23,663 nt of DNA, taken from positions 1 through 23,663 of the forward strand of contig JBFRWD010000113.1 in the NCBI GenBank assembly GCA_051439425.1. Reading direction: 5' to 3'. A program made the translations under genes and the position numbers. Each line of letters opens with the position of its first letter. Within the stretch, counting starts at the first letter, position 1. The notes below the pieces were generated by a model, which was not told the DNA's origin, ran no database searches, and saw only the letters and a program-made list of their open reading frames with translations. The DNA comes from Synechococcus sp. GTDB taxonomy: Bacteria > Cyanobacteriota > Cyanobacteriia > Thermostichales > PCC-7336. Of this stretch, positions 2,176 through 21,036 are shown piece by piece.

Positions 2176-2547
2176 TCAAACTATATTAGATAAGTGCTCG
2201 TCGCCTACTTTAAAGCCAGGAACGCAAATGACTCCCAAACGATTCTTGGGCGAGGTACTTATAATTCGGTGGTGTATACCACGTTCAATGACGACAAGCT
2301 CATTAGACTCGAATTTTTCGGTCCAAGACCTATTCTCTTTAGGATCGTGAAATCGGATCTCAAATGAGCCATCTAGAATAATGTAAATCTCGTCGAAGGT
2401 TTTATGGTAGTGACCTGTTGTGGGCTTCATATCAAGCCCAAACGCGAAATCAAGGCCTTTGTAATCATCACCTTGCAAAACCTCCCTGATTTTCCCACAG
2501 GTCGGAGTTTGTTTAACAACATGATCGCTCATCTTTCTAATAAGCAT
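2176..2547 (-). CDS. Cupin-domain protein (123 aa)
   Basis: Cupin metal motifs GHYHKTFDEIYIILDG and IERGIHHRI. GGAG upstream of the ATG. 26 nt downstream of the preceding gene. Confidence 0.88.
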   Translation of the reverse strand: MLIRKMSDHVVKQTPTCGKIREVLQGDDYKGLDFAFGLDMKPTTGHYHKTFDEIYIILDGSFEIRFHDPKENRSWTEKFESNELVVIERGIHHRIISTSPKNRLGVICVPGFKVGDEHLSNIV

Positions 2548-2573
2548 TGAAATTCTCCATTGCGATGTAATGA

Positions 2574-4559
2574 TTAGATTATCGGTCTAAGATACAGGGT
2601 TGTTTTTTTTTGTCCCGCTAAATTGATAGTGCGGGTAAAGAGAGAATAGGCTCTGTGATGAGGTGGAGGCGGCTTTAAAAAGAGTTCCTTGAACAGGCGA
2701 ACATAGTTTTTCTCATCTTCTTGCTGCGTTTGTAGCCATGCTAGGATTCGTTTATGCATGACTTTAATGGCTACAAGATGAACTGGAAACGCGACGCTTG
2801 TTGTTAATTCTAATATTTCTCCAGTCAAGGGGTGTAGGCGAAAGGAAAGCCCGGATCGTCGCTTTTGGGCAAGAGACTCAGATATTATGCCAGGAATGGC
2901 TGGAGCTATCTTAGTCGTAGTTTCTGAGAAGCCCAACTCAGTAGAGATTTCAGCTATCAGTGAGGGTCTCCAGCCGAAAAACTCGTAATAGACTTTAGTG
3001 CTCCACTTCCCATCACCGCGCAGTCCGAATCCAATTTCTTGAGGAAAGCCAAGGGTTTGAAGTCTGTCGCATACCCATTGCAGTTTCTCCGTATAGGGGA
3101 TACCCGCTGCAGCGAGTTTTGATTGCAGTCCAGTGTGCGAAGCCCCCTGCTCGCTAAGTAAATTATTGATATATACTTTGAGAACAGGCCAATCTCCAGC
3201 CGTCTGCGAGATACCCGCCCAAAGGCAAAATCGTGTTCCCGGGGGCAACTGCATTGCACAGGCCTGAATCTCGTTCCAAATTGGAGTGAGTTGCTGCCAG
3301 AGATCTCCACAACCCAGGTTAACAGCTGTATGTTTCAGGGCATCTAACCCTGTTTGAATCCTTTTAGCTGCCGATAAAACGGGGTTACCAATTTCGCATG
3401 TGTATCTCAGCGAAAGGGCTGAGTCGGTTTCTGTTGTCACAGAAAATTCTAGCGGTTGACCCATTGATAAAGAGGACAACTGTCCTGATGGCCAAACATT
3501 GGGCTGGGCCAAACTATCCTGAGTCAACCGTTGAAAGTGCTGTACTGCTTCTGCACTCTGCTGCTGGGTAAAGCCTGCCAAAGTACTGACACGGTACACT
3601 AACTGATCGCAGTTTTGCCCATAGGTAGAGCGCCGCTTCGTCGTATGGACGTTGTTTTTGAAGAATCTGCACCGCTTTGTTTCCACTGGCAGCAAACATT
3701 GCGAAGCAACAGAGGCTAGCACCGTTACCGTTGTAAAAATCCGCCGTGCATCGCAGGTCAGCTTGGGATGTACTTGCATGAGCCCTTCATGGGAAGGTGG
3801 CACGCGCAGAATTGGTATAGACTCCCAGCTACCGTCAGGATACTGTTGTGCTAATAAGCGCGACATAATATCCTTAGATGGAGTTTCAAGCAAGCTGCAG
3901 GCTTTGAGAAAGGGCGAGTCTCCCTGGAGAAAAGGCCAATCATAGTTCAAAGTTGGCTTACCAAGACGCCGCCATAGCCGCCACGCTAACCAGGTTGGAA
4001 AATGCGAATGCGCCCACCAGTAACCAGCAAACGTTCCCGCTCTTGTCTGGGTGGGGACAATGACGGTTTGCCAATAGGTGAGGGTGTCTGCCAAAGACCA
4101 AGCTAGCGAGTCTAATAGGGCTGCTGAGACGATCAGTGAGACATCGACACAGGGCTGCGCCCATTTATGCTTGTCTGGGTGAGAGCGATAGGTGCAAAAC
4201 AGACCATTGGGAGTCTGGTGGGTGAGGAGAAAATCTAAAGCTCCAGAGGGAATCGGTCGATTTAGGCGTGCCAGCAACACCACTACCCATGCTGTGCTAT
4301 CCGCATCAGGTACTGTCGTCATGTTATAGCCCCAACCCCCTTGGCAGCGGATATTGCTTAACAGCCAGTCAGCGGCTTTGTTGACACAAGCTCGGGCTAG
4401 CCGAGCCGTCTGAGGAGTCAGGTTGGCTGCCGTTTCTAAAAGCAATTCTGCAGTATAAGCGGTTACCCAAGCATCAGAAGTTCCTGCCTTCAACCAAAAA
4501 TCGGTCCAATAGCCTGATGGATGTTGAGTTCGAGCGAGATACTCAACACCGCTATCCAT
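2574..4559 (-). CDS. Fusion enzyme: N-terminal prenyltransferase/squalene-cyclase (QW-repeat) barrel plus C-terminal ABBA/DMATS-like aromatic prenyltransferase domain (661 aa)
   Basis: QW-type repeats LARTQHPSGYW, WLLSNIRCQGGW, FLLTHQTPNGLF, LLAQQYPDGSW, and PDADSTAW at the DxDD position. C-terminal PLEFS, LRY, LKVY, TKVYY and TTLYLRP motifs. Start moved to ATG 4559, which overlaps the upstream stop by 8 nt. Confidence 0.75.
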   Translation of the reverse strand: MDSGVEYLARTQHPSGYWTDFWLKAGTSDAWVTAYTAELLLETAANLTPQTARLARACVNKAADWLLSNIRCQGGWGYNMTTVPDADSTAWVVVLLARLNRPIPSGALDFLLTHQTPNGLFCTYRSHPDKHKWAQPCVDVSLIVSAALLDSLAWSLADTLTYWQTVIVPTQTRAGTFAGYWWAHSHFPTWLAWRLWRRLGKPTLNYDWPFLQGDSPFLKACSLLETPSKDIMSRLLAQQYPDGSWESIPILRVPPSHEGLMQVHPKLTCDARRIFTTVTVLASVASQCLLPVETKRCRFFKNNVHTTKRRSTYGQNCDQLVYRVSTLAGFTQQQSAEAVQHFQRLTQDSLAQPNVWPSGQLSSLSMGQPLEFSVTTETDSALSLRYTCEIGNPVLSAAKRIQTGLDALKHTAVNLGCGDLWQQLTPIWNEIQACAMQLPPGTRFCLWAGISQTAGDWPVLKVYINNLLSEQGASHTGLQSKLAAAGIPYTEKLQWVCDRLQTLGFPQEIGFGLRGDGKWSTKVYYEFFGWRPSLIAEISTELGFSETTTKIAPAIPGIISESLAQKRRSGLSFRLHPLTGEILELTTSVAFPVHLVAIKVMHKRILAWLQTQQEDEKNYVRLFKELFLKPPPPHHRAYSLFTRTINLAGQKKTTLYLRPII

Positions 4560-6756
4560 CTTCGCGATTGGGGAAAATAAACAAACTGTTTCCCTGAGAT
4601 GATTTTGCTTCACTCCATGCTCCCTGTCTATCAAAATATATGTTTTGTACGCGGTAGGTAAAGCTGGGTAGATTCGCAGCATCTTGACCTAGAATTTCCT
4701 TGAGCGATCGCTGCATGGTCACTTCTCCCTCCGAGTTATCTTTTCCCAGAACTAGCTGCTGTGGAGTATAGCCCTCGCGACTAATCTCCACCACGACCCG
4801 ATAAAGTTCTGAAAAAGCATCGGGTATTGTAGCCGCTTTAAATAGCGGACACTCGACCTTTATTTTCCATGAAAGCGACCCCGAGGGGGAGATTTCATGA
4901 ATGCGATCTAGCACATCGGTAGGATTGCTGGTGAGTTGGGGATCGAGCAAGGTCAGATGCACAGCATTCCATACATCATCAAGCACATCAATCGGCTCAA
5001 ATTCCACCACTTTTTTTGCGGCTGGTTCTAGCACAATCGGAACAGCTGTTTTATTAATCGCCTGAAAAATTGCCAGAGGCACTACCGAATTGCTATCTAC
5101 CTGCAACAGCCGAGGCACACAGGCGCCGATCTGCACAGCAGAATTAGCTGGGTTAAAAAGTTCTACCTGGCAAGGCGATAAGGTCTCTTCAACCATCCGC
5201 GTTTCCAGCTCAATGCCTGCCAGCTCGCTGAGAACCAGTCGCATGGGAATGCGCTTGACTAATCCATTAGATTCGTCTTGCCCAGAGGGTATGGTGACCT
5301 CAATCTCTCCGGTCATCCCAATTGGCGATGTCAGGAGTTCTGCTAAATAGCGATAGTATTCTAGCGAGAGGTCGAGCGTCATTTCAATGCCGCTCTCCAG
5401 GGAAACAGAGATCTCATCCCCAGCAATCAGCGAAATCTCTTCTGGGAAAGCAGTTTTCAGCCTCAAGATTGCTTTCTCGTAACCTCCCACAACCACACTT
5501 GGATGTGCTAAACTACCAGCACTTTCACGGTAAAGAAAATCTCGCAGAGCACTTAGCTTAGCAGGATCGTGATAGGGAAGCACCTGCAATGTGACCCGCA
5601 CGCGTACATTATCTTCGCTATCTCGATACAGTTGCGGAATAACATGGGGTGTGCCTAATTCAGGATTAAAGGCCAACCTCAATTCATCCGGGAGACGGTA
5701 GACGGTGTTCGCAAATTCTGCCTGGCGGATAAAGCCAAATTCCGTATCAGTCCAGTCTGTCCGCAGGCTATCCTCATCAGCACGAATAACAGCGTAGATA
5801 GGAAGGTTGGGCTTTAAGCTGGCTTGAAAGGCAAAATCTATTGTTCGTTTGATCGTCGCCTTTTTGTAATTTTGTTCTGCCTCTCGGTTTTGCTGCTCCC
5901 TTTCCAAAGTCTCGACCCTCTCAAGGAGTTCGCTAGAGATATTAGGAATGACTGGCTGCCTTAATCTGGCAACGGTAGCAGGTCGAACCGTCAGATTATT
6001 ATTTAATCTGAGCACGCTGTTATTAGGCTGTGCCAAAGCAGGATTTACCGATAGTCTTCGGATTGAGCTATTGTGCAAATTTAGCATTGGTCTGAGGGGC
6101 AATGGCTGTGCCTGTGGCCTCGCTGGGGGGGCACGGTGGCGACGGGGTTCCTGTGGCTGCTCGTCTGGCTGCGCTTCTAGCCAATAGCCATAGCTCAGCA
6201 ATAGCTCTAACTTTGCCTGTTGCTGCATCGCCTGATAAAGCGGCTCAATCTCATTAGCGGGAATTTCCATGCCAGCCCGAATGACGATCCGAGATTCCTG
6301 TCCGTCGGCCGCTTCATCGAAAAAAATCGTCGGTTGGGGAAAAGACTTGCGGTTGCCATTCCAGGTCACCGTTAAGGCATCAACATGAACCGAAAAAGGC
6401 TGGGCATTACTGAATGTTGAGGGAACTTCTTCAAGCTCGAGATGCAGGCGGAAATTGCCATCAGCATCTTTTAAAAAGCGCACATCAGGACCAGGGATCT
6501 GCCCTCCCCGCTTAGCGATGCGAAAATCGGGACGATAGTAATGCTTGCCATCGTTTGCCTGATAGGTTTTTCGATCCTGCAGGGGGGCTTGGTTAGCTTT
6601 GAACCGAGGCGCATTCTGATCGACCGCTAGCAAAATTGCATGCTGAATCCTATGCAGGGGAATGGTAGTTAGGGACCTTGCCTGCATCAGTTGCGGAGAA
6701 AGCTGAGCTTGATTAGCAGTAAGGGCTTCCACTCTTAGGGTTGTATTTTGAGGCAT
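4552..6756 (-). CDS. Uncharacterised protein G (734 aa), divergent member of the paralog array
   Basis: Long ORF with AAGGA upstream. Two segments resemble the family N-terminal motif (YQANDGKHYYRPDFRIAK..GPDVRF; IRQAEFANTVYRLPDELRLAF..GTP). Central P/Q/R/N-rich linker and a C-terminal repeat-like unit (YRVVVEIS...FTYRVQNIYFD..GAW). Confidence 0.8.
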   Translation of the reverse strand: MPQNTTLRVEALTANQAQLSPQLMQARSLTTIPLHRIQHAILLAVDQNAPRFKANQAPLQDRKTYQANDGKHYYRPDFRIAKRGGQIPGPDVRFLKDADGNFRLHLELEEVPSTFSNAQPFSVHVDALTVTWNGNRKSFPQPTIFFDEAADGQESRIVIRAGMEIPANEIEPLYQAMQQQAKLELLLSYGYWLEAQPDEQPQEPRRHRAPPARPQAQPLPLRPMLNLHNSSIRRLSVNPALAQPNNSVLRLNNNLTVRPATVARLRQPVIPNISSELLERVETLEREQQNREAEQNYKKATIKRTIDFAFQASLKPNLPIYAVIRADEDSLRTDWTDTEFGFIRQAEFANTVYRLPDELRLAFNPELGTPHVIPQLYRDSEDNVRVRVTLQVLPYHDPAKLSALRDFLYRESAGSLAHPSVVVGGYEKAILRLKTAFPEEISLIAGDEISVSLESGIEMTLDLSLEYYRYLAELLTSPIGMTGEIEVTIPSGQDESNGLVKRIPMRLVLSELAGIELETRMVEETLSPCQVELFNPANSAVQIGACVPRLLQVDSNSVVPLAIFQAINKTAVPIVLEPAAKKVVEFEPIDVLDDVWNAVHLTLLDPQLTSNPTDVLDRIHEISPSGSLSWKIKVECPLFKAATIPDAFSELYRVVVEISREGYTPQQLVLGKDNSEGEVTMQRSLKEILGQDAANLPSFTYRVQNIYFDRQGAWSEAKSSQGNSLFIFPNREDG

Positions 6757-6795
6757 GGTATTTCTTCCTTTGATATACGTGAATATTTAAGCCGA

Positions 6796-9006
6796 TTAGC
6801 GAGCAGGCGCTTCCAGCACTAAAACGGGATCGTCCGTTTCCTGCCATGTCCCTTCAAAGTTATCGCCACTATCTGCGCCAACGTAGCGCAGCTTATAGCG
6901 GAAGGTGGTCTTTTCAGAATCGCGTAAGAGCACTTTCCACAAGACGAAATCATTATTATCGGCTGAAAACCTTAAAATCTTGTCCTGTTTGAGATTATTG
7001 TCGGAATCTTCATACTCCAGGTAAACAAAGATCCGCCGATATTTGCTCCAATTCACCAGACCAGCATCAACCTGCACTTCTAGAACCTCGACACCGCCAG
7101 TACCTACTGGGATGGTATCGCCTAGTGTCCCTTCTATATCCGTTTTCTTCTCGCTAGACCCGTTTTTATAGACGATGATCTTGTTGTATGTAAACCGAGT
7201 AAGGTTAGGATCTCGCAGACTGAAAGTCCAACTGCTGGTTTCCCCATTTGATATAAGTTCGGTGTGATGGCTTACCTCAAAATCATTCCGCTCATCCCGA
7301 TAGACAGCATCGACAATAACCTTATCAATCACGCTAAAGTCAGCTTGGGCTAGGAATCGGGTAGACTTACTTTGCTCAAAGGGATTGGAAATTGTCAGCG
7401 TCTCAGCATTGTCGCGCTGTTCGCGGGTCTCCATTTGTTGTCCATCCTTGAGCACATAAACCAGGTCATAGATATGGTCGCGGGGTGGACCGGCATGGCC
7501 AGTGTAGGTGAAAAAGACTGCTAGGGGATTGTCTAGGGTTAGCTCAAAAGATTGATTGGCACTACTCGCGTTAGAGCCAGGGTAGCGAATATTGACCCGC
7601 ACGGCTTTGACAATTTCAGGCATACTCCCTAGCGCAATGGTTACCTTCTTAAACCCCAGTCGCTGATAGGAAATCACCAGCTGTCGTTCTCGGACCTCGA
7701 TAGTGCCAGAATTAGGGACGCGAATAGTTTCACCGGTGTCTTTATAAACGAGTTCGCTCCAGTATTGATAGGTATCTTTTGGTGAACCGTCGGCATTTTT
7801 GGCCATGATTTGCCGGAAACGATGCACATCGTTTGCGCTCTTAAACAAATATTCTTTTGCCTTTTTGACCCGCACATTTCTCATTTCATCTTGCTGGTCG
7901 TAGTCGATAAAGACCTTAAGGGCGTAAACGGGATCGTCCTTAAAATTGACGTTGGCATTAACCGTAACATCCAGTTCTTGGAAAAATTGCTGACTAGCGT
8001 CTACATATATGGTCGCTTTTTTGATTTGTTCTGGTGTCAGAATCTCATTGAGTTTGGCATTCGGATTAATGCGCTTTTGGATGATGTCCCGTTTGTTGAA
8101 ATGAACATCAATCTCACCTTCCACATCCTTTTCAATTTCTTTAAGCCACTTGTTACTGCTTTGTTCCTCGGTAGCAGGAGTAAATGCGGTTTGAAAAAAA
8201 CTGGGTAAGATGTTGGTTTGCAACATGCTAAATGCCATTTTCTCCAATTCATTTGTTAGATTAGAATTTGGATCGTTATCACGAAAATCGCCACTATCAA
8301 TATCAACAGTGAGACTGTGAAAAATCTCGCGAAACTCTTTAAGAGAGCCAATTTCTGGCCAGGTTCGCTTGTAGACCAACCTGCCATTTCTCTTCCTTGT
8401 TTCGATGACGGTGGTGTGCTGCTTAAGCTCCTCGTAAAAATCTCCGCGGTTGCCGTGAATATGAATCGAAACATTAGGAATTCTTGCCAAGTAAATCAGG
8501 TTGTAGTTGATAATAGCGGGAATAACTCCTTGCTCAACGCTTTGACGAAAAATCTCTGACGCCTCCTGGTTGAGTTGCTGACTGAAACTAGCAAGGTTCG
8601 CACCCATTAGAGAGGGCTGCTTCGAACCGGCACTAAAGCGCACAAGATCTTCATTGAAGGTGATGAACTCGACTGAACCGCCAATGAAGGCAGGTGGATA
8701 GCTCAGCTTGGGCTGGAAACCCACTAGGTTCTTTAGATACTGTCGAATCTGCTGTTCGTCTTGCGTTGAAACGGCTGCTTGGGTGGTTAACGAGAGATAG
8801 GCACGCTGAACTTCGCTATCTGCTGGCCCCAGATTGCCTACATCTCGAGCGTAGAGAATAAAGGTAAATAGGGGATCTCCATTGTCATCGACGGCAATAG
8901 TTGGACGATCTGTCACCATGTAGAATTGGGCATCATCATCATCATCCCGGTGAATCATGACGTGATTGATATCGGGAACTTTAATCGTTTTGTAGAGACT
9001 TAACAT
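6796..9006 (-). CDS. Uncharacterised paralog F (736 aa): conserved core plus ~4 beta-rich repeats
   Basis: AGGAG RBS. Motifs HRDDDDDAQFYM..GDPLFTFILY, GGSVEF and QPSLMGAN shared with neighbours. Confidence 0.9.
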   Translation of the reverse strand: MLSLYKTIKVPDINHVMIHRDDDDDAQFYMVTDRPTIAVDDNGDPLFTFILYARDVGNLGPADSEVQRAYLSLTTQAAVSTQDEQQIRQYLKNLVGFQPKLSYPPAFIGGSVEFITFNEDLVRFSAGSKQPSLMGANLASFSQQLNQEASEIFRQSVEQGVIPAIINYNLIYLARIPNVSIHIHGNRGDFYEELKQHTTVIETRKRNGRLVYKRTWPEIGSLKEFREIFHSLTVDIDSGDFRDNDPNSNLTNELEKMAFSMLQTNILPSFFQTAFTPATEEQSSNKWLKEIEKDVEGEIDVHFNKRDIIQKRINPNAKLNEILTPEQIKKATIYVDASQQFFQELDVTVNANVNFKDDPVYALKVFIDYDQQDEMRNVRVKKAKEYLFKSANDVHRFRQIMAKNADGSPKDTYQYWSELVYKDTGETIRVPNSGTIEVRERQLVISYQRLGFKKVTIALGSMPEIVKAVRVNIRYPGSNASSANQSFELTLDNPLAVFFTYTGHAGPPRDHIYDLVYVLKDGQQMETREQRDNAETLTISNPFEQSKSTRFLAQADFSVIDKVIVDAVYRDERNDFEVSHHTELISNGETSSWTFSLRDPNLTRFTYNKIIVYKNGSSEKKTDIEGTLGDTIPVGTGGVEVLEVQVDAGLVNWSKYRRIFVYLEYEDSDNNLKQDKILRFSADNNDFVLWKVLLRDSEKTTFRYKLRYVGADSGDNFEGTWQETDDPVLVLEAPAR

Positions 9007-9117
9007 GATAGGCTCCTATAAGTTGAAACTAAATTGAATTTGTCTGTTTCCAGCGTGTAGAGGGCGTTAAAACAATCTATAGCTGGGTCTAGGAGGGGTG
9101 AGTAAGCGGTATTTGCG

Positions 9118-9762
9118 TTAGCGTTTGTCTAACTTGATTTCTACACGCTTACCGTTAACAGGATTTATCTGGCAGGTTAACTGCCGAGATATGTTTCGAG
9201 CTGTGGTTTGACGCATGGTGGAACTTTGACAAGTCTTTTGACCCGGCTGATTTGCGGTAGAGGTGGTTTTGGTTTCAGCAACATCCCAGCCGACAAACTG
9301 CACGCTGTAGCACAAGGATAACCATTCCTTGTCAGATTGCCAAAGTTTGCTGAGGGTCTGGGCCTGTTCCGCGGTGAGACTTGCGCTCAATACACATCGG
9401 TTGTCCCCCATGAGGGTCGGTTGTCCTGTCAAAGTGAGTATATCGTCAATCTCCACCGTGACGGTTCCGCTTCTCCAGTCAGGGGAACTGAAGTGGGGTG
9501 GATTGCCCTCTTTTGCGGTTAGAGCAGCGGTCACTGCCAGCTGTTCAGCTGGTGATAATCCGAGGGAGGTCGTCAGGTTCAGCTGACCGCCTGTGGTGAT
9601 GCCCCGCTTCTGATAGGTCATCAGCGTCATGTCGACAGCCCCCTCGATCAGAGAGAGGTGGGGCTGAGCGAAGGTGTAGTAGCGAGCTGAATCTTCTATA
9701 TCTGGGTAGATCCACAGGTGTGGATAGTCAACCAGGGTAATCGGACGTGTGAGATCAATCAT
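9118..9762 (-). CDS. Uncharacterised minimal paralog E (214 aa), core domain only
   Basis: Motifs IYPDIEDSARYY, TGGQLNLTT, SGTVTV and GQPTLMGDNR match the family core. No C-terminal repeats. Confidence 0.85.
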   Translation of the reverse strand: MIDLTRPITLVDYPHLWIYPDIEDSARYYTFAQPHLSLIEGAVDMTLMTYQKRGITTGGQLNLTTSLGLSPAEQLAVTAALTAKEGNPPHFSSPDWRSGTVTVEIDDILTLTGQPTLMGDNRCVLSASLTAEQAQTLSKLWQSDKEWLSLCYSVQFVGWDVAETKTTSTANQPGQKTCQSSTMRQTTARNISRQLTCQINPVNGKRVEIKLDKR

Positions 9763-11479: not shown

Positions 11480-11526
11480 GAGTATCTCCTGATGGATTGC
11501 GCAGGTTTAGGGTGACCGCAGGGAGA

Positions 11527-14106
11527 CTAACCCAGGGGTCGAATGAGGAGTGGTGAGCGATTGGTGGTCTGGAATTCAGATTCGACATTAGTGCCGTCGT
11601 CAAAGAAAAAGTTTGTGCGCCACTGAAAACTGTCAGCGTTCTCATCAGGGAGACGCAGCTTCCATTCTTGGATCTGGCTGTCTGGTGAGCTGTCGATGAC
11701 CAGGGTTTCTGTTTGGGTAAATTCCTCACCCCCTGCCGGATCTTCGTAGCGTAAGTCCACCAGGACTAAGCTGACACCGATCGCACTCGGGTCGGGTCCC
11801 AGCCACCGCACTGAAATTGTTTTCACCCTATCTGCAGGAACCCCTACCAGCAGATGGGGTGAGACTGCTTCTTGCCAAGGTTCGACATCGACACCGCCAT
11901 CTTTGTAAATACAGCGCTCCTGGTAACGCAAGACGGGGGTTGTTCCTTCGGGTAAGCGAACAGTCAGCACCTGTCGCCCCGCCCCGCCCGGTTGCTTCAA
12001 TTCGTAGGTTTGGTTAAGCAAGGTATCTGAATTGCTAGTCACCTGAATATCCACGAGGACTGACTCCAGCTCGGCGAGCGGGTCTTGCATGATGATGTCA
12101 CCGCTGAGGCGGTCACTGACAGGTAGTTCCACAATCAGAGAGGCATCGGCATCTCCGCTGTCGGTATCTGGCCACTGTTTCGCGCCCAAAAACTCTGAAG
12201 AGCCATCGTCATAAAAGACGGTTGTTGCGATCTCGAACTGTTCTGTGGCATCCGCAAGGCGAATGACTGCGTTTGCAATGGGCGCATCAGAAGACAAGAC
12301 AAACAGCTCGGCATCGTCCACACCGCTAGCCTCGTTGGCATAGCGCACCTGAACGTGAACTTCTGTAATTTCTTCTGCAATATTGGGAGGCAAGCGCAAT
12401 TCAATCGGCAAAGTTCGCCCTAATTCACGCGGATGGATCGCCAAACTACGAGCATCGGTTTCGATCCAGTCGCTGGTCATGCGTAACTTATCAATTCCGA
12501 TGCCAAAGTCGCTGAGATAATCAACGATCAGCTTGTACTCATAGGTCTGCGTTCCGTTCTCATCCGCAAAAAATGTGAAGGTTTTTTTCTGCTCCCCATC
12601 CCGTAAAATTACCTCAGCTGTATCCTTGGGAAAGCTGCCATCCGATCGGATGCCATAGCGCAGCTGCACCGTCATTTGACGAACCCCCTCTGTCGTAAAA
12701 TTCACATCACCTGCACTCACATTGATATTGATGCGCTGGAAGAAGGGGTGATTCAGGTCGATCAAATTGACGTGCCGATTGAGTTCGCGGCTATCGGCCA
12801 TAAACTGAATAAAATTTTGCGGCGCGATCGTTTTCTTCTGGGCAGACACCTGCGACAGATTGTAAGTTACCGTTCGCTGCTCGCGCTGAGAAATCTGTTT
12901 GAGGGCAAAGGCAGCCTGCGGTTGACCCAATTGGTTCCACACATCGGCAGCTGTGCGGCCAGGTTGATTGCCCCCGCTGGTCCCCTGAGTGCCCCCTGTC
13001 GTCCCCGAGGATTCTCCTCCAGACGTAGGTTGGGTCGACCCCCCAGCAGTGCCGCCCCCCGTCTCCCCGGGCCTGCCGCCAGATGGGGTAGCTTCGCCTC
13101 TGCTTGCTGCTGCGTCGCTTGCTGCCCGCATGCCTGGGGTACTGGCCATGCTAGCAGCGATCGCCGCCCCTGGCCCATCGCGCATCGCATTGCTGATTTG
13201 CGTGCTAACGGTGGTCGCAGATGTAGGGTCAGCAGCGGTGATTGTGTCCCCTTGCACCTTGGGCTGACCGGGGGTCAGTGACGGTTGGAAGAGTGCCCCA
13301 GTCGCCAAATCTTTGACTAGTTTATCGATGCGCTGCTGACGAGAGGCGATCGCTTCTGGGGTAGAGAGTTCTAACGTACGGGCAACCTCGTGAATTTTAA
13401 TCGCTTCTTGCCGTTGCAGTTCTTCAATAATGTTGTCGATATCGGCTTTGAAGAAAAGCGTGCCCAGGGTAAAACGCTGACGGGCATAGTCATAACTCTG
13501 CTTGAAGTCAATGGTAATTTTTAGATCGTAGGCGGGCAGCAGTCCAACGTACTCCAGCTCGTAGACCACCCCCACCGGCCGCGCATCCACATCACCGCCG
13601 AGCACTCCCAAGAAGAAAGCAGCCCCCTCCTCACTGAGCGAAAATGAAAAGATAGTCCGATTATCTCCGGTGAGAGAAGGTTGGCCAGCCCCCAGGATCT
13701 TTTGAATAAACCGAGGACCACTGGCTGCCAGAGGGGCGCTCTCATCAGCGGAAGCCGTCCCTTCTGTGCCAGTGCTGCTCTCTCCTAACGCAATTACCCG
13801 AGCTGTTCCCTTAGTGTACGGAATCGGGGCCAGGGTAATCTCTTCCTCAAAGCGACGATTCAGTTCACTTTCGACCCGACCCCGTAACGGTCCCAAGTCA
13901 GACGCGACCGCCATATTGAGGAAACCACCGGTAATCGCATCGGCTGATTCTCCTCCTTTGTTATAGGTAAACAGGTCGAAAAGAGGACGGTTATTTTCTA
14001 CGGCAATCTGAGGATTGGGTGCCTCGTAGAAAAACTGTTTTTCATTATCGAGATCTTGGTAGAGGGTAACGCCGAAAATCTCCATTTTTGATTCAAGGTC
14101 TAACAT
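11527..14106 (-). CDS. Uncharacterised paralog D (859 aa): core with a long G/T/S/A-rich insertion plus ~4 beta-rich repeats
   Basis: Start moved to ATG 14106 (GGGAG upstream; MLDLESKMEIFG aligns with paralog N-termini). Motifs LYQD..QFFYEAPNP, GGFLN, GQPSLTGDNR and PVGVVY. Confidence 0.9.
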   Translation of the reverse strand: MLDLESKMEIFGVTLYQDLDNEKQFFYEAPNPQIAVENNRPLFDLFTYNKGGESADAITGGFLNMAVASDLGPLRGRVESELNRRFEEEITLAPIPYTKGTARVIALGESSTGTEGTASADESAPLAASGPRFIQKILGAGQPSLTGDNRTIFSFSLSEEGAAFFLGVLGGDVDARPVGVVYELEYVGLLPAYDLKITIDFKQSYDYARQRFTLGTLFFKADIDNIIEELQRQEAIKIHEVARTLELSTPEAIASRQQRIDKLVKDLATGALFQPSLTPGQPKVQGDTITAADPTSATTVSTQISNAMRDGPGAAIAASMASTPGMRAASDAAASRGEATPSGGRPGETGGGTAGGSTQPTSGGESSGTTGGTQGTSGGNQPGRTAADVWNQLGQPQAAFALKQISQREQRTVTYNLSQVSAQKKTIAPQNFIQFMADSRELNRHVNLIDLNHPFFQRININVSAGDVNFTTEGVRQMTVQLRYGIRSDGSFPKDTAEVILRDGEQKKTFTFFADENGTQTYEYKLIVDYLSDFGIGIDKLRMTSDWIETDARSLAIHPRELGRTLPIELRLPPNIAEEITEVHVQVRYANEASGVDDAELFVLSSDAPIANAVIRLADATEQFEIATTVFYDDGSSEFLGAKQWPDTDSGDADASLIVELPVSDRLSGDIIMQDPLAELESVLVDIQVTSNSDTLLNQTYELKQPGGAGRQVLTVRLPEGTTPVLRYQERCIYKDGGVDVEPWQEAVSPHLLVGVPADRVKTISVRWLGPDPSAIGVSLVLVDLRYEDPAGGEEFTQTETLVIDSSPDSQIQEWKLRLPDENADSFQWRTNFFFDDGTNVESEFQTTNRSPLLIRPLG

Positions 14107-14171
14107 TGTTGTCTCCCGAGCATAGAAAAAGTTGAAATGAGCTATCGTGCTGTTCGGCACGATAACATCGC

Positions 14172-16451
14172 TCACAAATTGCGAAGTGAAATAATTAATT
14201 GCGTCATCTCGCTTTCTAACCAGTCAGAAAGCGAGATGCTTCCATCCTGTTTAAATGTCTGAGAACGCCAGCGGTAGCGCAGCGTGCTGCCTGGGGGAAT
14301 GGTGAACAGCACTGGCTGAACCATCGCTTCACCAGGGGCAAAGAAGATTTCATGCCGGGCATCAGCCTCAAGCTGCTCTAGCGTCACTAGCAGCGCATCA
14401 ATGCCGGCATCTTTCAACGTTCCACCAATTAAACGAACGGTAACCGTGACCGCACGGCTATTCTTTTCACCAACTACGACAGAACCATCTGTTGTTTCCA
14501 GCCACTCACCTTCGTGGGTAAAACCAGGCTCAAAGGTGGTCTCCCGATAGCGAATCATCTGCTTGTTGGGATCGAAAATTGGCCAGCGCAGCTCGGTGCT
14601 GGCAAAAGAAGGCAAGAGCTTGACTAGAAACTCCCTTTGATAGCTGCGATCTTCATCTGTATACTGCACTTCCAGGTCAATTTCTGTGATGCTTTCGGCA
14701 ATCACATTGGGGCGAATAAAGAGCGATCGCTCTTGACTAAACGGTGCATCGATTCGCACAAGGGGATCGCTTCGCTTGGAAGGAGCATCCTCCCAGACTG
14801 TGCCATCTGAAAATACGTAGGTCACCTGCACCTGATAGGCTGGCTCGATCGGCTCCGCTGTCCGTACCCGCCATTGCAAAGGCTGTTGTAAAGAAGAAGG
14901 CAGCTCGATGCGGAATTGCTCGCTCGCAGCGAACTCGGCATCGGGGGCATCGTAGCTCAAGCGAACATCGATTTGCTTCACCGACTCGTGAATCCGACCG
15001 GGCTCGACCTCTACCTTCAACATGCCAAAATCTCGATTGGGGTTGATGGTCAGAGACTGCCCGACCCGAGTTTCAGGGGGTAGCGCGTACTCAAAGCTAT
15101 CGGTGTCAATGCCATTGTTGGGCAGAAATTCGTAGACCAACTGCACGGTGTAAGCCAGCGAATCGCGCCCGTTACGCTGGGCACCAAAGATTTTATCCCC
15201 GGTAGAGTCCGGTCTAAATAGCAGGGTTTGTTGCTTGTCCCCATATTCAAAGTTTGCTGCCACTTGTCGAATTCCCATTGAGGTAAATTCCTCTTTTAGG
15301 GGCCCGGTAGTGAGAACTTCAACCGTTTGGAAAAACTGATTGTCCAGAGGCACGCGATGAATGCGCTCTCGCAGCATTTGCTGGCTCACCAACAGCGGCA
15401 AAAACGCCTGGGGCGCATGGGTCCGCTTTTGGGGCAATCGTTCGTTGAAGCTGTAGGTTACAAATTTATCTTCGTAGCGTAGATTTGCTTTCAGAGTCAG
15501 GGAAATTTGCCCCCCACCAGTACTGCTGGCCGCCACGCCAGAGGATGCCGCACCGGTCAGGGCCGCCGCGGCAGTAGATGCCTGCCGAAGCGAATTAAGG
15601 GGGGTCGACGGCTTGAACATTTCCTGAACAATGCGCTCTTTAAACAGCTCGAGGGCAAGTTGCTTGCTTTTTTGCGCCGCTTCTCCCGTCATTTGGCTGG
15701 TTATTTGGATATCGATCGCGCTTTGTTCGCTTAAAAAGTCAATCCCAGCATTAATATCAGCTTTAAACCAAGCATATTGCCCCCCCAATCCGCCGCCAAA
15801 ATGCTTGTGAATCCGGCTGAGATTGGCATGGATAGTCACATCTACCGCTGGACTCAATCCGTAAAATTCGAGGGCGTAGACAACCCCAACGGGAGCAGCC
15901 CCTTGACTGTAAAGCCCTTCCAAAAAGGCAGCCCCCTCCTGACTGAGTTTTAATGAAAAGATAGACCGTAAATTACTCAGCAACGATGGTTTTCCGGCAC
16001 CTAGAATTCTCTCGACAAATTTTGGCCGATTGTCCAAGCGCCTATCGGATGCGGCAGCCCCAGCCTCTCCCTCTAGATTCTGCATTTCATCTAAAGCGAT
16101 CACGCTGACCGTCCCGTCTGTGTAGTGCACGGGAGCGAGGACAATGTCCGTTTCCAAGATGCCCACTCGATCGGCAAGTCGCGATCGCACCGTGCGTAAC
16201 GTAGCAGGAGGAATCACGCATTCCACCCCCATATTCATAAACCCCGCCCCCAACTCATAAGGGATTTTCGTCCCCGACAGCACCGAATGTTCTAAAGCCA
16301 CGGTATACATGTAAAGGTCAAACATCGGGCGGTTATTGACAATTGCCAGATGAGGATTAGGCGCAACATAATAAAATTGATTGGGAATTGCGTGATCGGC
16401 ATATAGTAAAGTGCCGTCGATTTCGAGTGTTGGTTGTTCAAATGTGAGCAT
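14172..16451 (-). CDS. Uncharacterised paralog C (759 aa)
   Basis: GGGAG RBS. Motifs LYADH..QFYYVAPNP, DGTVSV, GKPSLL and PVGVVY. Closest by eye to paralog D. Confidence 0.9.
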   Translation of the reverse strand: MLTFEQPTLEIDGTLLYADHAIPNQFYYVAPNPHLAIVNNRPMFDLYMYTVALEHSVLSGTKIPYELGAGFMNMGVECVIPPATLRTVRSRLADRVGILETDIVLAPVHYTDGTVSVIALDEMQNLEGEAGAAASDRRLDNRPKFVERILGAGKPSLLSNLRSIFSLKLSQEGAAFLEGLYSQGAAPVGVVYALEFYGLSPAVDVTIHANLSRIHKHFGGGLGGQYAWFKADINAGIDFLSEQSAIDIQITSQMTGEAAQKSKQLALELFKERIVQEMFKPSTPLNSLRQASTAAAALTGAASSGVAASSTGGGQISLTLKANLRYEDKFVTYSFNERLPQKRTHAPQAFLPLLVSQQMLRERIHRVPLDNQFFQTVEVLTTGPLKEEFTSMGIRQVAANFEYGDKQQTLLFRPDSTGDKIFGAQRNGRDSLAYTVQLVYEFLPNNGIDTDSFEYALPPETRVGQSLTINPNRDFGMLKVEVEPGRIHESVKQIDVRLSYDAPDAEFAASEQFRIELPSSLQQPLQWRVRTAEPIEPAYQVQVTYVFSDGTVWEDAPSKRSDPLVRIDAPFSQERSLFIRPNVIAESITEIDLEVQYTDEDRSYQREFLVKLLPSFASTELRWPIFDPNKQMIRYRETTFEPGFTHEGEWLETTDGSVVVGEKNSRAVTVTVRLIGGTLKDAGIDALLVTLEQLEADARHEIFFAPGEAMVQPVLFTIPPGSTLRYRWRSQTFKQDGSISLSDWLESEMTQLIISLRNL

Positions 16452-16464
16452 TGTTTAGCTCTCC

Positions 16465-18690
16465 CTAAGCGATCAATTCTTGTCGTTGAAGATGAACGAT
16501 CAGATTGCTAGCGATTGAAGTCTGCCAGGGCAATCGATTGACAAACCCATTCTGATCGACAAACATCACTTGTATGTGAAGTTCCTTAATGGGGGGATCG
16601 CCCAATCCAAACTCCCATTTCTGCGGCGACAGCTCCCCTTCCCAAACCATCTGGCGTTCGGCACGGACAGTTCCATCTAATGACCGTTGCTCCAAATGGA
16701 CTCGCACCGCTTGGAGGCGATTTTCCTCCAGCGTTCCGCCAATTGGGCGTACCGTGACAAGGCGTTTTTCAAGCAGATCGGTATCAACCACTAGGCGAGT
16801 ATCTTCTGTGGTGCGCCATTCGCCTTCCAGCAATCCTTGGTTGCCAAACACGGTCAAGCGATAGGAAATTTCCTGAGAACCGCCATCTGCGATATCGTAT
16901 TTCTTCTGAATAAACGGCTGGCTGTTCACTAGATCGATCTGTTCGTCAAAGGTAATGCCATTGGCTTCATCCTCGTAGCGTAGCTCTAATAAAGCGACAT
17001 GCAACCCTTCGAGTGATAAATTAACCAGAATTTGCAGGACTCGTTTATCTGGGGCAGGATTTGGCAGAGAGAGAATCTCCTCCGTACTCTCGCGGGTTAG
17101 CAGCGCAATATCCGGTGCATCTACATCCTCCGGGCGCAGATAGGTAACAGTGTACTTGTAAGCTGGTCGGGTTGTCTCAAAATGACGAAAATGCCAGGTC
17201 TGTGGGTTCGTATCCCGAAAAGTGAGTCGCTTTGTCCAATCTTCATAGCCAAGATCCACAACGACCGCTGCAAACTTTCGGAACTGAAACGTAGGCGGAA
17301 GGAAAACCTGGATAGACTCAACTTTATAAGCTAAGCGAGTTTCGACAATCAACTGGGGGGTTCGACTGGTTTTCCAAGCGGTCTGCACCGCCTCGTGGGC
17401 ACCAAATGAATGTGCCGGATCGAAGTGAACAATGGTTCGATACTCGTAGGGCAGATCGAACGGGTTTTCCGCACCCAAAAGATTCACGATATAAGTCTGC
17501 CGCTCGGTTGCCGAGCGAAAGGTAAAGGTACGAGCCGCCTGTTGATTGGGCTGGCGGAGTTCTGTCTCCACCCGTGCAACTCCGTCGCTGGAAAAGCGAT
17601 CTTCGACTCCAATTTCTACCTCGAGTCGGGGAAACCCATTGAGATTAATCTTTTTGACCAAGGACTGGCGTACTAATGTCCAGTTGGGGTTCGGGCGACC
17701 CTGCTCGTCTACCTGAAACTGGCGAAATAGTCCTCCGAGCGTACCTTGGGGAACCACTTCACGCCGCTCTGCCACGGCTTCATCCATGCGAATCTCAAAG
17801 TGGCGGATTTGCTCCTGGGTAAGCGACCGCAATCGATAACTCACCCCCGGTACAATAGTTCGAACCAAACTGAACAGAACATTGTCAACAGCGTCAGTCA
17901 CGGTCTCCGCTGCATCTGGCTCAGTTGCAAACAGCGGCTCAAACATCCGTTCGATAACCCAGTCAAGCAGCTGCTTTCGAGCTGCCTCTGCCGCTGCGCG
18001 GTCAGCCTCACTACTGCCAAACACCGTCGTGTCGATGGCAATATCTTGGGTTTCGAGAGCCTTCTCAATCGCTACTTCCACATCAGCCGCAACATAGTAA
18101 GCATTGGCCTTGAGTCGATGGGTAAGTTCGCTGTAAACCTTCTGCCAATCCGCCTCGATAGTAATGTTGTAACTAGGACGCAAACCGCTCAATTGCATAC
18201 GATATATCAAAACCAGCGGTAGCTCAGGGGTCTCTAAGAGCTTTTCAACCAGCTCTGCTCCAGCGGCATCTAGCAACAGTTGAAATGACACCCGATTTTT
18301 AATATCGAGAGCGGGCTTACCGCTGCCCAAGATTTGCAGTTCAAATGGGGCATCCTCAGATCTCTCGATACTACTGCTGCCCAGGGCAACTAGCTCAACC
18401 GTCCCCTCATCAAACAGGACTGGCTTAAGCTCAAAATCATCGTCTAGTCGAGCTTGGAGTGCCTCAAATTCAGTTACGAGTTCAGCAGAAAAAGTGAGCA
18501 ATCCTCCCTCGATCTTTTCATTCCCCGCCCCGCCCCCCAGATATTGCACCAGGGAAAAATCCACTGGCCCATTGTCTTTCAGCCGCAGCTGGGGCGTGGA
18601 GGGCAAAACATAGCGAACTTGCTCGGCCTCGCTATCTGGCAACAGCGTGTACCCGCCAACTATTTGGTAAGGAGGAGTGAAAGACAACAT
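16465..18690 (-). CDS. Uncharacterised paralog B (741 aa)
   Basis: GAGG upstream. Motifs LLPD..VRYVLP, GGLLTFS, EGTVELV and GKPAL..KNR. C-terminal repeats such as VVDLGYED...YKYTVTY. Confidence 0.9.
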   Translation of the reverse strand: MLSFTPPYQIVGGYTLLPDSEAEQVRYVLPSTPQLRLKDNGPVDFSLVQYLGGGAGNEKIEGGLLTFSAELVTEFEALQARLDDDFELKPVLFDEGTVELVALGSSSIERSEDAPFELQILGSGKPALDIKNRVSFQLLLDAAGAELVEKLLETPELPLVLIYRMQLSGLRPSYNITIEADWQKVYSELTHRLKANAYYVAADVEVAIEKALETQDIAIDTTVFGSSEADRAAAEAARKQLLDWVIERMFEPLFATEPDAAETVTDAVDNVLFSLVRTIVPGVSYRLRSLTQEQIRHFEIRMDEAVAERREVVPQGTLGGLFRQFQVDEQGRPNPNWTLVRQSLVKKINLNGFPRLEVEIGVEDRFSSDGVARVETELRQPNQQAARTFTFRSATERQTYIVNLLGAENPFDLPYEYRTIVHFDPAHSFGAHEAVQTAWKTSRTPQLIVETRLAYKVESIQVFLPPTFQFRKFAAVVVDLGYEDWTKRLTFRDTNPQTWHFRHFETTRPAYKYTVTYLRPEDVDAPDIALLTRESTEEILSLPNPAPDKRVLQILVNLSLEGLHVALLELRYEDEANGITFDEQIDLVNSQPFIQKKYDIADGGSQEISYRLTVFGNQGLLEGEWRTTEDTRLVVDTDLLEKRLVTVRPIGGTLEENRLQAVRVHLEQRSLDGTVRAERQMVWEGELSPQKWEFGLGDPPIKELHIQVMFVDQNGFVNRLPWQTSIASNLIVHLQRQELIA

Positions 18691-18792
18691 ATGCTTACGC
18701 CCTCGAATTTAGATAAGGTTTAACCAACAAGTCTCAATCAACTCGGTTCAGCCAGACCAAACTACTGATCTTGTGCTGACTCCTGAGTTTTT

Positions 18793-21036
18793 TTAGACAG
18801 GCTCAGCCGTATTACTTGGCGGCAGAAATAGAAAATCTCGATCGGATTGAATAATACCGCTCTGATCGATCAATTGCTTTCGGGTGCCATCTGCCATAAA
18901 GTAATCGACCGCGTAGATATAATCGCTGACACGGGCATCCTGTCGCGCGATGCTCCAGGTTTGAGAAGAACTATCTCGGAACAGGAAACGAGCAGTATCG
19001 ACAACATCATTGTCTTCGTCAACATAGGTGAGGCTCACAATAGCGCGGCGTACGATGCCCCCAATGTCGACATCCGAGGGATCGACTTCAATTTTGACAA
19101 CGCCGTCTGGCGCATTTCCCACGACGATTGTTTCCCCACTGGCCTCTTGCCAATCGTCTTGACGAAACGCACTGTTTTTGAACAACAGGGTTTGTCGGTA
19201 GCGGTAGCTGCGGTGATTCTCGTCGCGAAGGGGGACTTGCCACGCTAAAAGCTGCGCAGTATCCTTCTGGAAGTTGAAGCTAGTGATCCGACGGTAGTCA
19301 TTGTCAATATCTTCGTAATCGAGATCGACAACCATCTGCTGCACTTCGTTCCAGTCTACAGAAGCGATGACATTGACCGATAAATTCCGGTCAAAGGCTG
19401 TGGGAATCGTCACTGTTTTAGCCTGGGAAGAGACCCAGCTTGTGGTGGAGCGCTGGGCGGCTCCTGGACCATCATCGAGGATATAAGTCCAGCGGTAGCG
19501 ATAGGGCTTATCCCAAAGCGCGAAAATGTTGCGACGATAGTTAACCGAAGAATCCTGCGCGTTTAACAGCACTGATTCGATAGTTAACGGAACCTGGTTG
19601 CGAGGATCGCTATATTCAATTTCAACTTCAATCCCCTTTAATTCGTTGCCAAAAACTTGTGGCTGAGCTGAAAAGGTGACTTCAATAATACCAGGATTGG
19701 GCACCTCCAGGGTCAGATCGCGCAACTGGGTCGAGTATTGAGCAATCTTCCGCTTACTAACTGGCCCTGCTTTATAGTTGACTTCAATTTCGACCTGATA
19801 GGTATCTTTACCAACGGCAGCTAAACGTGTCATAAACGCTTTGTCCTGGCGTTTGTAATTATCCGCTGTAAAAATAACGCTCTCGTATGCTGAAATGCGC
19901 GTTCCGTCAGGTTTGACTTCGTCATAGCTCAAGTGACCAACAACGCTATGGACGATATCTTTGTACTTACTGAAATCCAGGGTGGTGTCAACACTAACCT
20001 CAAGGGTATTGTAGTACCAAGGCGCATTTTGTAAATCGATATCCAAAATGACATCGTCAATGGGCATCCCAAGAAAAGAAGGATTTATCTGGGCATTGGG
20101 ATTGTATTCGCGATAGATCACATCCCGATAGGACACATTCAGGTTGAAATTTTGACTGATATCGGTCGAAAGAAATTCCATCCATTGGCTGCGCCGATCC
20201 TCTTCTGTTTCTACGGTTCCACCTTTGAGGAAATGTTTTTGAATAAATTCATCCATCGACCGAAAGGCAAATGCCCGCAGCGACTCCATATCCTCTTGCT
20301 TAAGATCGACATTTTCCTTCAATATTTCAAGTTTAACTAATCCCTGAGATTCCATGATTTCAGAAATGGAAGTTCGTTGACGTTCCTCACGGCTATCATC
20401 CCCCCAGACACTCTCATCAGTAATGGTTTGTTCCGTATACTCCATGACAGCTTCTTTCACTTCCTGGGAGTTGACTTCACCAATGATCGTTATGGCAGGC
20501 AGGCGAACAGGAAAACGTAGCTTGTACTGGATCGCGCCGATGCTCCCACCCTGTTTTAAGGTTTCATAGAAAAGCGTGGCTGCATCTGCTTTAAGTTCGA
20601 TAGCGATCGATGCTCTGTTATCAGAAAACAGCGAAGGCCTACCGAGTTGAATTGCCTTAATAAACTTATTGTCCTGCATAATAATTAATTCCACCGTGCC
20701 ATCGGTAAAATCAACTGTTGCCAGTTTTGGTTCTGAAACCTGGGTAGATAAAGGATTCTCTTGACGCAGAAGCTGGCGCAAGCGCGGCATGATTTTTTCG
20801 CTTATTGTTTGCTGCGGCACCTCAAAATTTGTCGTAAAGACAAGATATCCTCCACCGGGCTCTTGCCCACCACGTTCTAAGGGAAACTGGTATCTGAGAA
20901 AGGTAAATTGAGGTTTGCCATTTTCGTCTTGGGCAATACGAATGTCTTTAATCAGATAGTAAAACTTTGATTTGTCTGCATCATCTCGAAAAATGGTAAT
21001 ACCATCAATCTCATCAAATACTGGAATACTAAGCAT
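18793..21036 (-). CDS. Uncharacterised paralog A (747 aa), first gene of the operon
   Basis: Motifs IFRDD..KFYYL, GKPQFTFLRY, GGGYLVFTT, DGTVEL and GRPSLFSDNR. Four C-terminal repeats. Confidence 0.9.
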   Translation of the reverse strand: MLSIPVFDEIDGITIFRDDADKSKFYYLIKDIRIAQDENGKPQFTFLRYQFPLERGGQEPGGGYLVFTTNFEVPQQTISEKIMPRLRQLLRQENPLSTQVSEPKLATVDFTDGTVELIIMQDNKFIKAIQLGRPSLFSDNRASIAIELKADAATLFYETLKQGGSIGAIQYKLRFPVRLPAITIIGEVNSQEVKEAVMEYTEQTITDESVWGDDSREERQRTSISEIMESQGLVKLEILKENVDLKQEDMESLRAFAFRSMDEFIQKHFLKGGTVETEEDRRSQWMEFLSTDISQNFNLNVSYRDVIYREYNPNAQINPSFLGMPIDDVILDIDLQNAPWYYNTLEVSVDTTLDFSKYKDIVHSVVGHLSYDEVKPDGTRISAYESVIFTADNYKRQDKAFMTRLAAVGKDTYQVEIEVNYKAGPVSKRKIAQYSTQLRDLTLEVPNPGIIEVTFSAQPQVFGNELKGIEVEIEYSDPRNQVPLTIESVLLNAQDSSVNYRRNIFALWDKPYRYRWTYILDDGPGAAQRSTTSWVSSQAKTVTIPTAFDRNLSVNVIASVDWNEVQQMVVDLDYEDIDNDYRRITSFNFQKDTAQLLAWQVPLRDENHRSYRYRQTLLFKNSAFRQDDWQEASGETIVVGNAPDGVVKIEVDPSDVDIGGIVRRAIVSLTYVDEDNDVVDTARFLFRDSSSQTWSIARQDARVSDYIYAVDYFMADGTRKQLIDQSGIIQSDRDFLFLPPSNTAEPV

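Follow-up and report, generated by a model that had tools for sequence, protein, structure and literature searches.

The contig JBFRWD010000113.1 of a Synechococcus sp. assembly (GCA_051439425.1), analyzed here over its full 23,663 nucleotides (the window, which is the whole 23.7-kb contig), carries ten co-directional open reading frames (ORFs) on the minus strand between positions 2176 and 21036, and raises the question of what a run of large, unnamed proteins (genes A-G) does beside a phospholipase D (PLD), a terpene cyclase fused to a prenyltransferase (TC) and a small cupin-like protein (Table 1). The operon is without precedent in the databases and literature searched, and its function is proposed from its genes: six paralogs may form a self-assembling hetero-oligomer acting on membranes or the cell envelope, for which PLD would be the effector and to which a terpenoid-lipid module would belong, a tentative reading to which we give rather less than an even chance. 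No description of the operon or of A-G was found in family databases, solved structures, source annotations or the portions of the literature covered, subscription journals lying outside its scope. A-G matched no Pfam, NCBIfam, PADLOC or PHROG model, and for seven of the nine core genes the family has neither a name nor a solved structure, nor any model in Pfam, NCBIfam, PADLOC or PHROGs.

The initial annotation had listed ten minus-strand genes separated by 102, 13, 65, 47, 103, 111, 39, -8 and 26 nt, and ORF calling reproduces these gaps exactly with D starting at ATG 14106 and TC at ATG 4559. Longer ORFs begin at GTG 14175 (D) and ATG 4682 (TC); the shorter forms are preferred because ortholog alignments begin at MLDLES in D and near GVxYL in TC. 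No terminator-like site was found on the minus strand in any of the operon's intergenic gaps.

Mapping of the genes with phmmer in 25 loci from a genome scan revealed that the order A-B-C-D is consistent in 24, the remaining locus (L017) lacking B, that F is followed by G in all 15 loci reaching F, and that TC comes next in all 12 loci continuing past G. E was detected in 11 and PLD in 13 of the 15 loci reaching F, the two without PLD (L009 and L019) both being from Actinomycetota. The full gene order also occurs on a Paracoccus plasmid, and metagenome loci found with a four-row TC alignment agree with it, while flanking genes vary between loci. Carriers include Cyanobacteria, Chthonomonadaceae, Deinococcus, Bryobacterales, four Chloroflexota orders, many Actinomycetota, Limnochordia, a deltaproteobacterium, Eisenbacteria and Paracoccus, or about ten phyla by our reading of record titles. 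The initial annotation as a conserved, undescribed multi-gene system is thereby borne out, the order being kept in all but one locus and a characterized match being absent from the databases searched.

Two variant operons occur. On plasmid p2 of Pararhizobium qamdonense (L042, 1423-18487), an eight-gene variant located between Crp/Fnr regulator and P450 genes comprises four clear paralogs and a fifth, weakly matching one of 600 aa (E 5e-6), besides three unknown proteins unrelated to them (817, 304 and 588 aa), and has neither PLD nor TC; the second variant, a three-paralog set in three Deinococcaceae genomes, likewise has no PLD and no TC. Because the variants keep three to five paralogs without PLD or TC, the paralog set is the core of the operon. 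In its own phylum the family was found in 1 of 301 sampled genomes, all six matches lying within this window, and among Deinococcaceae in 8 of 121 genomes, three of which hold six matches (full copies); a collection of 50,697 phage records gave no match. The operon is, with near certainty, horizontally mobile.

How many of the large proteins are related was addressed by BLASTP among the window proteins, which linked A with F (1e-45), C with D (4e-61), B with C (3e-33) and E with A, C, D and F (1e-3 to 1e-6). In contrast, G had no significant match to A-F, and when a G profile built from a 13-sequence alignment was compared by hhalign with the families of C, A and F, the probabilities were under 1%. 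Since G is unlinked, the seven paralogs counted initially become six: A, B, C, D and F at full length, and E as an N-domain only. The family-defining N-domain comprises ~210 aa, and its profile matches A at 2.6e-63 and E at 2.6e-37 over positions 1-182. In a 38-row alignment of the six paralog classes from eight genomes, D19, G113 and Y192 are invariant, P33, Y49, G70, P155, L157 and L169 are at least 90% conserved, and the first four positions are M in 37 rows, L/I in 36, S/T/D in 33 and L/I/F in 35, so that the common motifs and the M-L/I-(S/T/D) start noticed earlier are real. Maximum-likelihood analysis recovers every one of the six classes as a single group with ultrafast bootstrap (UFboot) support of 96-100, B joining C and D. 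The strongly supported monophyly of each class therefore places the duplications before the spread of the operon, with all copies retained, in agreement with the earlier view of ancient, separately kept paralogs, each with orthologs of its own (those of A in 22 loci). Non-redundant subunits would leave such a pattern.

At E<=1e-3 the N-domain profile matches 2414 representative proteins, a number that falls to 1556 at <=1e-10 and to 403 at <=1e-30; many of the 2414 are distant subfamilies, and the domain is N-terminal in all 150 of these matches that were listed. All 85 homologs of C are unnamed or 'hypothetical'. Longer fused N-domain forms of 1330-3795 aa were looked for and none found, a weak indication. 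Among 30 relatives scanned, the only known fused domain is a C-terminal PG_binding_1 (1.3e-12) in a distant relative of 1002 aa (P0214).

An AlphaFold2 model of C, built from 40 orthologs with a predicted local distance difference test (pLDDT) score of 78.7, has a beta-rich N-domain at residues ~1-215 and helices at ~233-299; a disordered Ala/Gly/Ser linker occupies 300-329, and residues 330-759 form four FN3/Ig-like beta-sandwich domains (pLDDT ~90). A, B, D and F align to C over their full length, the sandwich array being modelled in C only, and all five proteins have the N-domain, a helical segment and a low-complexity linker. Structure searches with the C model returned generic tandem FN3/Ig/MG arrays (Foldseek E ~3e-8, TM-score 0.08; best VIA Z 7.6). 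The N-region of C folded alone reached a pLDDT of 70.7, and with this model Foldseek found nothing in the PDB at E<=1e-3 (best E 0.07), the best VIA-wide score (Z 6.4) being to FN3-like sandwiches and likewise generic. Against the PDB, the N-domain profile yielded repeat-protein artefacts only (designer PPRs without a qualifying stretch), and a seven-protein profile and the G profile returned nothing; the ESM Atlas gave only unnamed clusters for G and no usable named match for the C N-region. Among viral structures the best match of the N-region was an uncharacterized Medusavirus stheno protein (A0A7S7YF07; E 3.3e-3, probability 0.98, TMq 0.32, 280 columns). A complex prediction for residues 1-300 of C and D, run with no controls, scored 0.01 against a mark of 0.32, which gives no verdict on their pairing.

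As the initial annotation had stated, no signal peptide or transmembrane-grade segment was found in these proteins, the highest Kyte-Doolittle 19-residue mean being 1.73. A, B and F contain no Cys, and C and D one each; across 12-18 orthologs per class (A, B, C, D and F) Cys makes up 0.04-0.23% of residues, compared with a median of 0.77% in 580 long ORFs of the genome, and the same five proteins are acidic. Cys poverty, acidity and FN3-like arrays are features usual for extracellular proteins.

The PLD embedded among the paralogs is confirmed by its match to Pfam PLDc_2 (8e-14, 52 bits versus a cutoff of 27). H164/K166, H405/K407/D412 and G419-S-x-N422 are invariant in 14 orthologs, the first HKD-type motif carrying one extra residue ahead of its Asp. 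All five matches of the PLD profile in the PDB are phospholipases D, among them 7v53 (4e-14), plant PLD alpha1 and human PLD1/2; 7v53 is PldA, a lipase effector of the type VI system of Pseudomonas aeruginosa. Two HKD-type motifs are common to these enzymes and the operon PLD (E 4e-14 to 4e-10), while the operon PLD is much shorter (537 aa) and the matches are limited to the motif regions. NCBIfam matches to cardiolipin synthase and DrmC are weak and far under cutoff, and a DrmC-like match in PADLOC is also sub-threshold (E 1.5e-3). Judged by its motifs, the protein is nearly certain to be an HKD enzyme with intact catalytic motifs, and by its PDB matches it is probably of the phospholipase type. 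No type VI secretion system (T6SS) or immunity gene was recognized. The idea that cargo might be swapped at the PLD position found no support, PLD being sometimes absent but in no locus replaced there, and the variable module being the 3' tail. A Thermomicrobiales locus (L007, 627-2663) carries a second PLD-domain protein, of 678 aa, directly upstream of A, besides the PLD after D.

G orthologs always lie between F and TC, and the stop codon of G overlaps the start of TC by 8 nt here and by 4 nt in an annotated Paracoccus record. The overlap in both suggests that G works with TC, and by gene layout G is almost certainly translationally coupled to it. In a profile search of the PDB, the N-terminal half of TC (positions 2-298) matched 8paj at 1.4e-36 and MstE at 3e-32, a full-length correspondence with MstE and the monodomain class II meroterpenoid cyclases (6sbb, 8paj, 8pak and 6ij1; 1e-36 to 2e-26). 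The DxD acid motif of MstE is kept as D85-A-D87-S-T-A, and D85-x-D87-S-T-A is invariant in nine orthologs. The C-terminal half (positions 336-533) matched four entries, including 6zrz (9.2e-5), 7w8u (6-DMATS, 1.5e-4) and PriB (5inj, 5.6e-4), being weakly similar to these DMATS-type enzymes with the repeated K-V-Y strand motifs kept. The matches of both halves confirm the proposed cyclase/prenyltransferase fusion, and TC is in all likelihood, close to certainty on these profiles, an MstE-like class II meroterpenoid cyclase joined to a DMATS-like ABBA aromatic prenyltransferase.

MstE itself uses DxD and cyclises an aryl-C20 substrate (PMC12324236). Unlike the MstE-type cyclases, TC is fused to an ABBA prenyltransferase and sits within a non-biosynthetic operon. 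The homolog search described in that study was limited to proteins of 300-400 aa (PMC12324236), and cyclase fusions such as TC would therefore have escaped it; the cyclase-then-prenyltransferase order was not found in the literature covered. A metagenome contig (L052, 2896-7320) holds a TC homolog within a 1474-aa ORF without a Pfam match, which may be a fusion to an upstream protein, non-G by phmmer.

Most loci end after TC. The cupin-like protein is present in this window only and does not follow TC in the other loci examined; its initial naming stands as far as a partial metal-binding motif, HxH(x)4E(x)6G at residues 46-60, is visible, and falls short in that its Pfam Cupin_2 match (3.6e-4, 20.6 bits) lies under the cutoff of 27.2. 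On the plasmid of Paracoccus sp. SMMA_5_TC (L043, 29800-32266), TC is followed, stop and start codons overlapping, by a tyrosinase (PPO1_DWL, DUF7868) and a trypsin-like protease, and in a Bryobacterales locus (L034, 186-3178) by a tyrosinase, a 138-aa ORF and a subtilase (S8). The tail proteases are non-homologous, S1 in Paracoccus and S8 in Bryobacterales, and of 14 loci inspected beyond TC, these 2 have a tyrosinase module there.

What the proteins might do together is best approached from the paralogs. The fixed order, separate retention of the paralogs, tight junctions and paralog-only variants make a multi-subunit assembly on the N-domain the simplest reading. A Pfam scan of the operon found no ATPase or translocon. 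A site of action outside the cytoplasm, at a membrane or envelope, is suggested by the lack of a nucleoside triphosphatase (NTPase), the FN3-like arrays, the acidity and Cys poverty, the PG_binding_1 relative, the phospholipase-type PLD and the terpenoid-lipid enzyme; the earlier pointer to membranes as the target is strengthened by the phospholipase D nearest relatives together with the MstE-type/DMATS-like TC. Rarity, plasmid carriage and the missing defence-island context speak for an accessory function in antagonism rather than for a housekeeping structure or phage defence.

In the mechanism we propose, the six paralogs would co-assemble through their N-domains into an ordered hetero-oligomer, no NTPase being involved, the conserved N-terminal M-L-S-L strand possibly acting as an inter-subunit contact and the sandwich arrays projecting outward as binding arms. 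Its target would be a lipid membrane or cell envelope, where the complex, most likely once released and outside the cytoplasm of the producing cell, would work as an antagonistic or toxin-like device, PLD being an optional effector that attacks lipids. The contribution of G-TC would be a polycyclic aromatic terpenoid, which may be a lipid cofactor acting on membranes or may anchor the subunits covalently through one of their aromatic residues. Toxin-side context gives this a weak pointer, in the form of Hbl-family genes beside one distant N-domain member and hemopexin-repeat genes in three actinobacterial loci.

Several observations weigh against this proposal. The main weakness is that no export route is encoded and that hosts are both monoderm and diderm, and an extracellular role accordingly needs lysis or an unknown route. 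The Hbl and PG_binding_1 associations are single cases each, the Hbl-linked member occurring in 1 of 301 genomes of its phylum sample. In the searches made, no pore-forming, toxin, pilus or secretion fold was matched by the N-domain, modelled at a pLDDT of 70.7, or by G. Some lineages do without PLD, and the two variant operon types lack it too. The prenyltransferase half of TC is placed by matches of E ~1e-4 over 115-200 residues and is without a Pfam match. Lastly, 12% of this genome's long ORFs are equally Cys-poor, and the PLD orthologs are not uniformly Cys-free.

Much of the same evidence could be accommodated by polymerisation of the paralogs into a cell-surface or extracellular sheath, coat or adhesive matrix, terpenoid-anchored, with PLD remodelling the membrane beneath and some lineages hardening the matrix by tyrosinase quinone cross-linking after proteolytic activation. 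The FN3/Ig-like arrays, acidic composition, Cys depletion and PG_binding_1 domain in one relative would all fit such a material, as would the tyrosinase and serine protease placed right after TC in two unrelated lineages with non-homologous proteases, and a low Cys content would presumably spare quinone-thiol side reactions. The rarity of the operon (1 of 301 genomes; 3 full copies in 121 Deinococcaceae) is nevertheless odd for an envelope structure, signal peptides and export genes are missing here as well, and the tyrosinase module is confined to the two loci, so that we regard a surface material as doubtful. The tyrosinase tail also enters a bolder version of the toxin-like proposal, drawn by analogy with complement and in our judgement highly improbable, in which the six paralogs would assemble in order like C5b-C9 into a 'membrane-attack' apparatus, terpenoid-lipidated by G-TC, carrying PLD and, in some lineages, a prophenoloxidase-like tyrosinase module. 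G-TC would here attach a cyclised, sterol-like terpenoid covalently to an aromatic residue of the paralogs, insertion into foreign membranes would proceed without an ATPase or secretion system, PLD would be of eukaryote type, and the tyrosinase might be protease-activated as in arthropod prophenoloxidase melanisation. To our knowledge, terpenoid lipidation of a protein aromatic residue is not known in bacteria.

An anti-phage or abortive-infection role, in which a paralog complex senses infection inside the cell and frees or activates PLD against the host membrane, would suit the sporadic horizontal distribution, plasmid carriage and phospholipase effector. Defence-like genes do occur nearby in two cases, as an EAD1-trypsin peptidase/EAD1/STAND-type ATPase module directly upstream of A and on the same strand on the Paracoccus plasmid (L043, 6414-11301), which is the exception to the non-defence flanks, and as a NACHT-TPR gene adjoining one distant member. 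Against this, no PADLOC model matches A-G and PLD is only DrmC-like below threshold. PADLOC matches were found for 9 of 98 flanking proteins (21 loci plus the window's two flanking genes), all on proteins with housekeeping-type Pfam domains (MutY, NUDIX, ParA, methyltransferase, DinG-type helicase and LuxR HTH), and the flanks therefore have no defence-island pattern. None of the phage records matches, NTPase and nuclease are absent, some lineages lack PLD, and known defence systems do not resemble 19 kb of FN3-array proteins; we consider defence unlikely, somewhat more so than a surface material. Less probable again is a natural-product cluster, in which TC, with tyrosinase or cupin as tailoring enzymes after it, would make an aromatic polycyclic meroterpenoid and the large proteins would act as scaffold, carrier or self-resistance. 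TC does join aromatic prenylation and class II cyclisation, both meroterpenoid chemistries, and the aryl-C20 substrate reported for MstE (PMC12324236) points the same way. Yet variant operons retain paralogs without TC, seven of the nine core genes are non-enzymatic, and no conserved polyprenyl diphosphate synthase, transporter or regulator was found in the cluster. That the genes are neighbours only, with no joint function, would agree with there being no direct evidence for co-transcription or interaction; we nearly dismiss it, given an identical order of nine gene families in about ten phyla with unrelated flanks, and gaps that are short or overlapping and free of terminator-like sites.

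The surroundings of the operon were also inspected. In the window it lies between an IS4-family transposase (Nterm_IS4 and DDE_Tnp_1; 746-2149, minus strand) and a ParB-like protein (ParB_N and HTH_ParB; 21712-22680, minus strand), and the G+C fraction at both contig ends is 0.385-0.43 versus ~0.5 inside; a plasmid or island origin of this DNA is possible. The intergenic region upstream of A contains no ORF of at least 60 aa and no Rfam match, and no tRNA or Rfam family was found within the window. The sequencing runs listed for the source are DNA only, labelled marine sediment metagenome, and include no RNA. Elsewhere, three actinobacterial loci (L008, 928-3957; L010, 1921-3168; L021, 3182-4660) encode hemopexin-repeat proteins (three to four repeats) immediately upstream of A and in divergent orientation, the L021 protein having no obvious signal peptide past its likely Met start, while the small ORFs that directly precede A in two actinobacterial loci are mutually non-homologous. 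A Chloroflexia locus (L023, 10001-14767) has C in three separate ORFs and D in two, the other genes being intact, and this may be a decaying copy or reflect assembly errors. A distant single N-domain member of 759 aa (L090, 3252-13032) is preceded by two genes of the Bacillus_HBL family (alpha-pore-forming toxins) and by a 419-aa ORF; a Big_2 protein comes after it, and the opposite strand carries a NACHT-TPR STAND gene.

Table 1. Features of the operon in the window (tree support as given for the paralog classes).
Feature	Position	Strand	Description
Intergenic region upstream of A	21037..21711	.	675 nt; presumed promoter/regulatory region
Gene A	18793..21036	-	747 aa; full-length paralog with N-domain, helical insert and beta-sandwich array; first gene of the operon
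Gene B	16465..18690	-	741 aa; full-length paralog; own orthologs; tree support 100/98
Gene C	14172..16451	-	759 aa; full-length paralog; modelled with AlphaFold2
Gene D	11527..14106	-	859 aa; full-length paralog; long Gly/Ser/Thr/Ala-rich linker; alternative start GTG 14175
Phospholipase D (PLD)	9866..11479	-	537 aa; two HKD-type motifs
Gene E	9118..9762	-	214 aa; short paralog, N-domain alone; tree support 100/100
Gene F	6796..9006	-	736 aa; full-length paralog; nearest to A; own orthologs in 15 loci
Gene G	4552..6756	-	734 aa; conserved core protein unrelated to A-F
TC	2574..4559	-	661 aa; terpene cyclase (~1-300) and prenyltransferase (~335-660)
Cupin-like protein	2176..2547	-	123 aa; lineage-specific tail gene

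If the preferred reading of a self-assembling, membrane-directed hetero-oligomer is true, the operon would represent a new class of bacterial protein apparatus, with five to seven large subunits and no NTPase combined with a PLD and a cyclase/prenyltransferase, and maybe new lipid chemistry in the form of a meroterpenoid lipid or a protein-terpenoid conjugate. According to record titles, cultured carriers include Deinococcus aquatilis DSM 23025, Paracoccus sp. SMMA_5 and Cellulomonas sp. ICMP 17802, and the question is therefore directly testable.

Known systems, including those that the initial annotation had not recognized in the locus, were compared with the operon. For Tc toxins, extracellular contractile injection systems (eCIS) and T6SS, no hallmark domain (TcA/TcB/RHS, sheath, tube, baseplate or VgrG) was matched in Pfam, NCBIfam or PHROG, and for known anti-phage systems (PADLOC-DB v2) A-G, TC and the cupin were without match, that of PLD to DrmC (E 1.5e-3) being the only one. 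An alpha-pore-forming toxin of the Hbl/Nhe kind was rejected as Bacillus_HBL (PF05791) is absent from A-G and occurs only beside the one distant family member, and chaperone-usher or sortase pili were rejected for want of signal peptides and of usher, chaperone or sortase Pfam domains in the operon or its flanks. For MACPF/CDC, aerolysin, gasdermin and further pore-former folds, the N-domain was compared through its model of pLDDT 70.7, which had no Foldseek match in the PDB at E<=1e-3 and a generic FN3 match as its best VIA-wide score (Z 6.4). The top full-length Foldseek matches of the C model are MG-domain arrays (E 3e-8) of alpha-2-macroglobulin, complement C3-C5 and thioester-containing proteins (TEP), matches which at TM-scores of 0.08 correspond to generic tandem sandwiches. 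Such proteins also contain an alpha/alpha toroid domain (PMC12324236). A thioester protein of this kind was nonetheless rejected, as no CxEQ (C[GLAS]EQ) motif occurs in the ten proteins and the toroid here is the DxD cyclase.

A parallel in organization is offered by systems in which paralogous subunits assemble in a fixed order, namely chaperone-usher pili, tripartite toxins of the Hbl/Nhe/Ahl type and complement C6-C9. The operon differs from these in having no sequence or fold match to them, A-G being without Bacillus_HBL, MACPF, pilin, usher or chaperone Pfam domains, and in its full-length subunits of 740-860 aa, which are without signal peptides and, in the model of C, carry four FN3-like domains. 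What it would share with them, purely by analogy, is a surface or membrane as target and a set of diverged paralogs retained side by side with no NTPase required for assembly.

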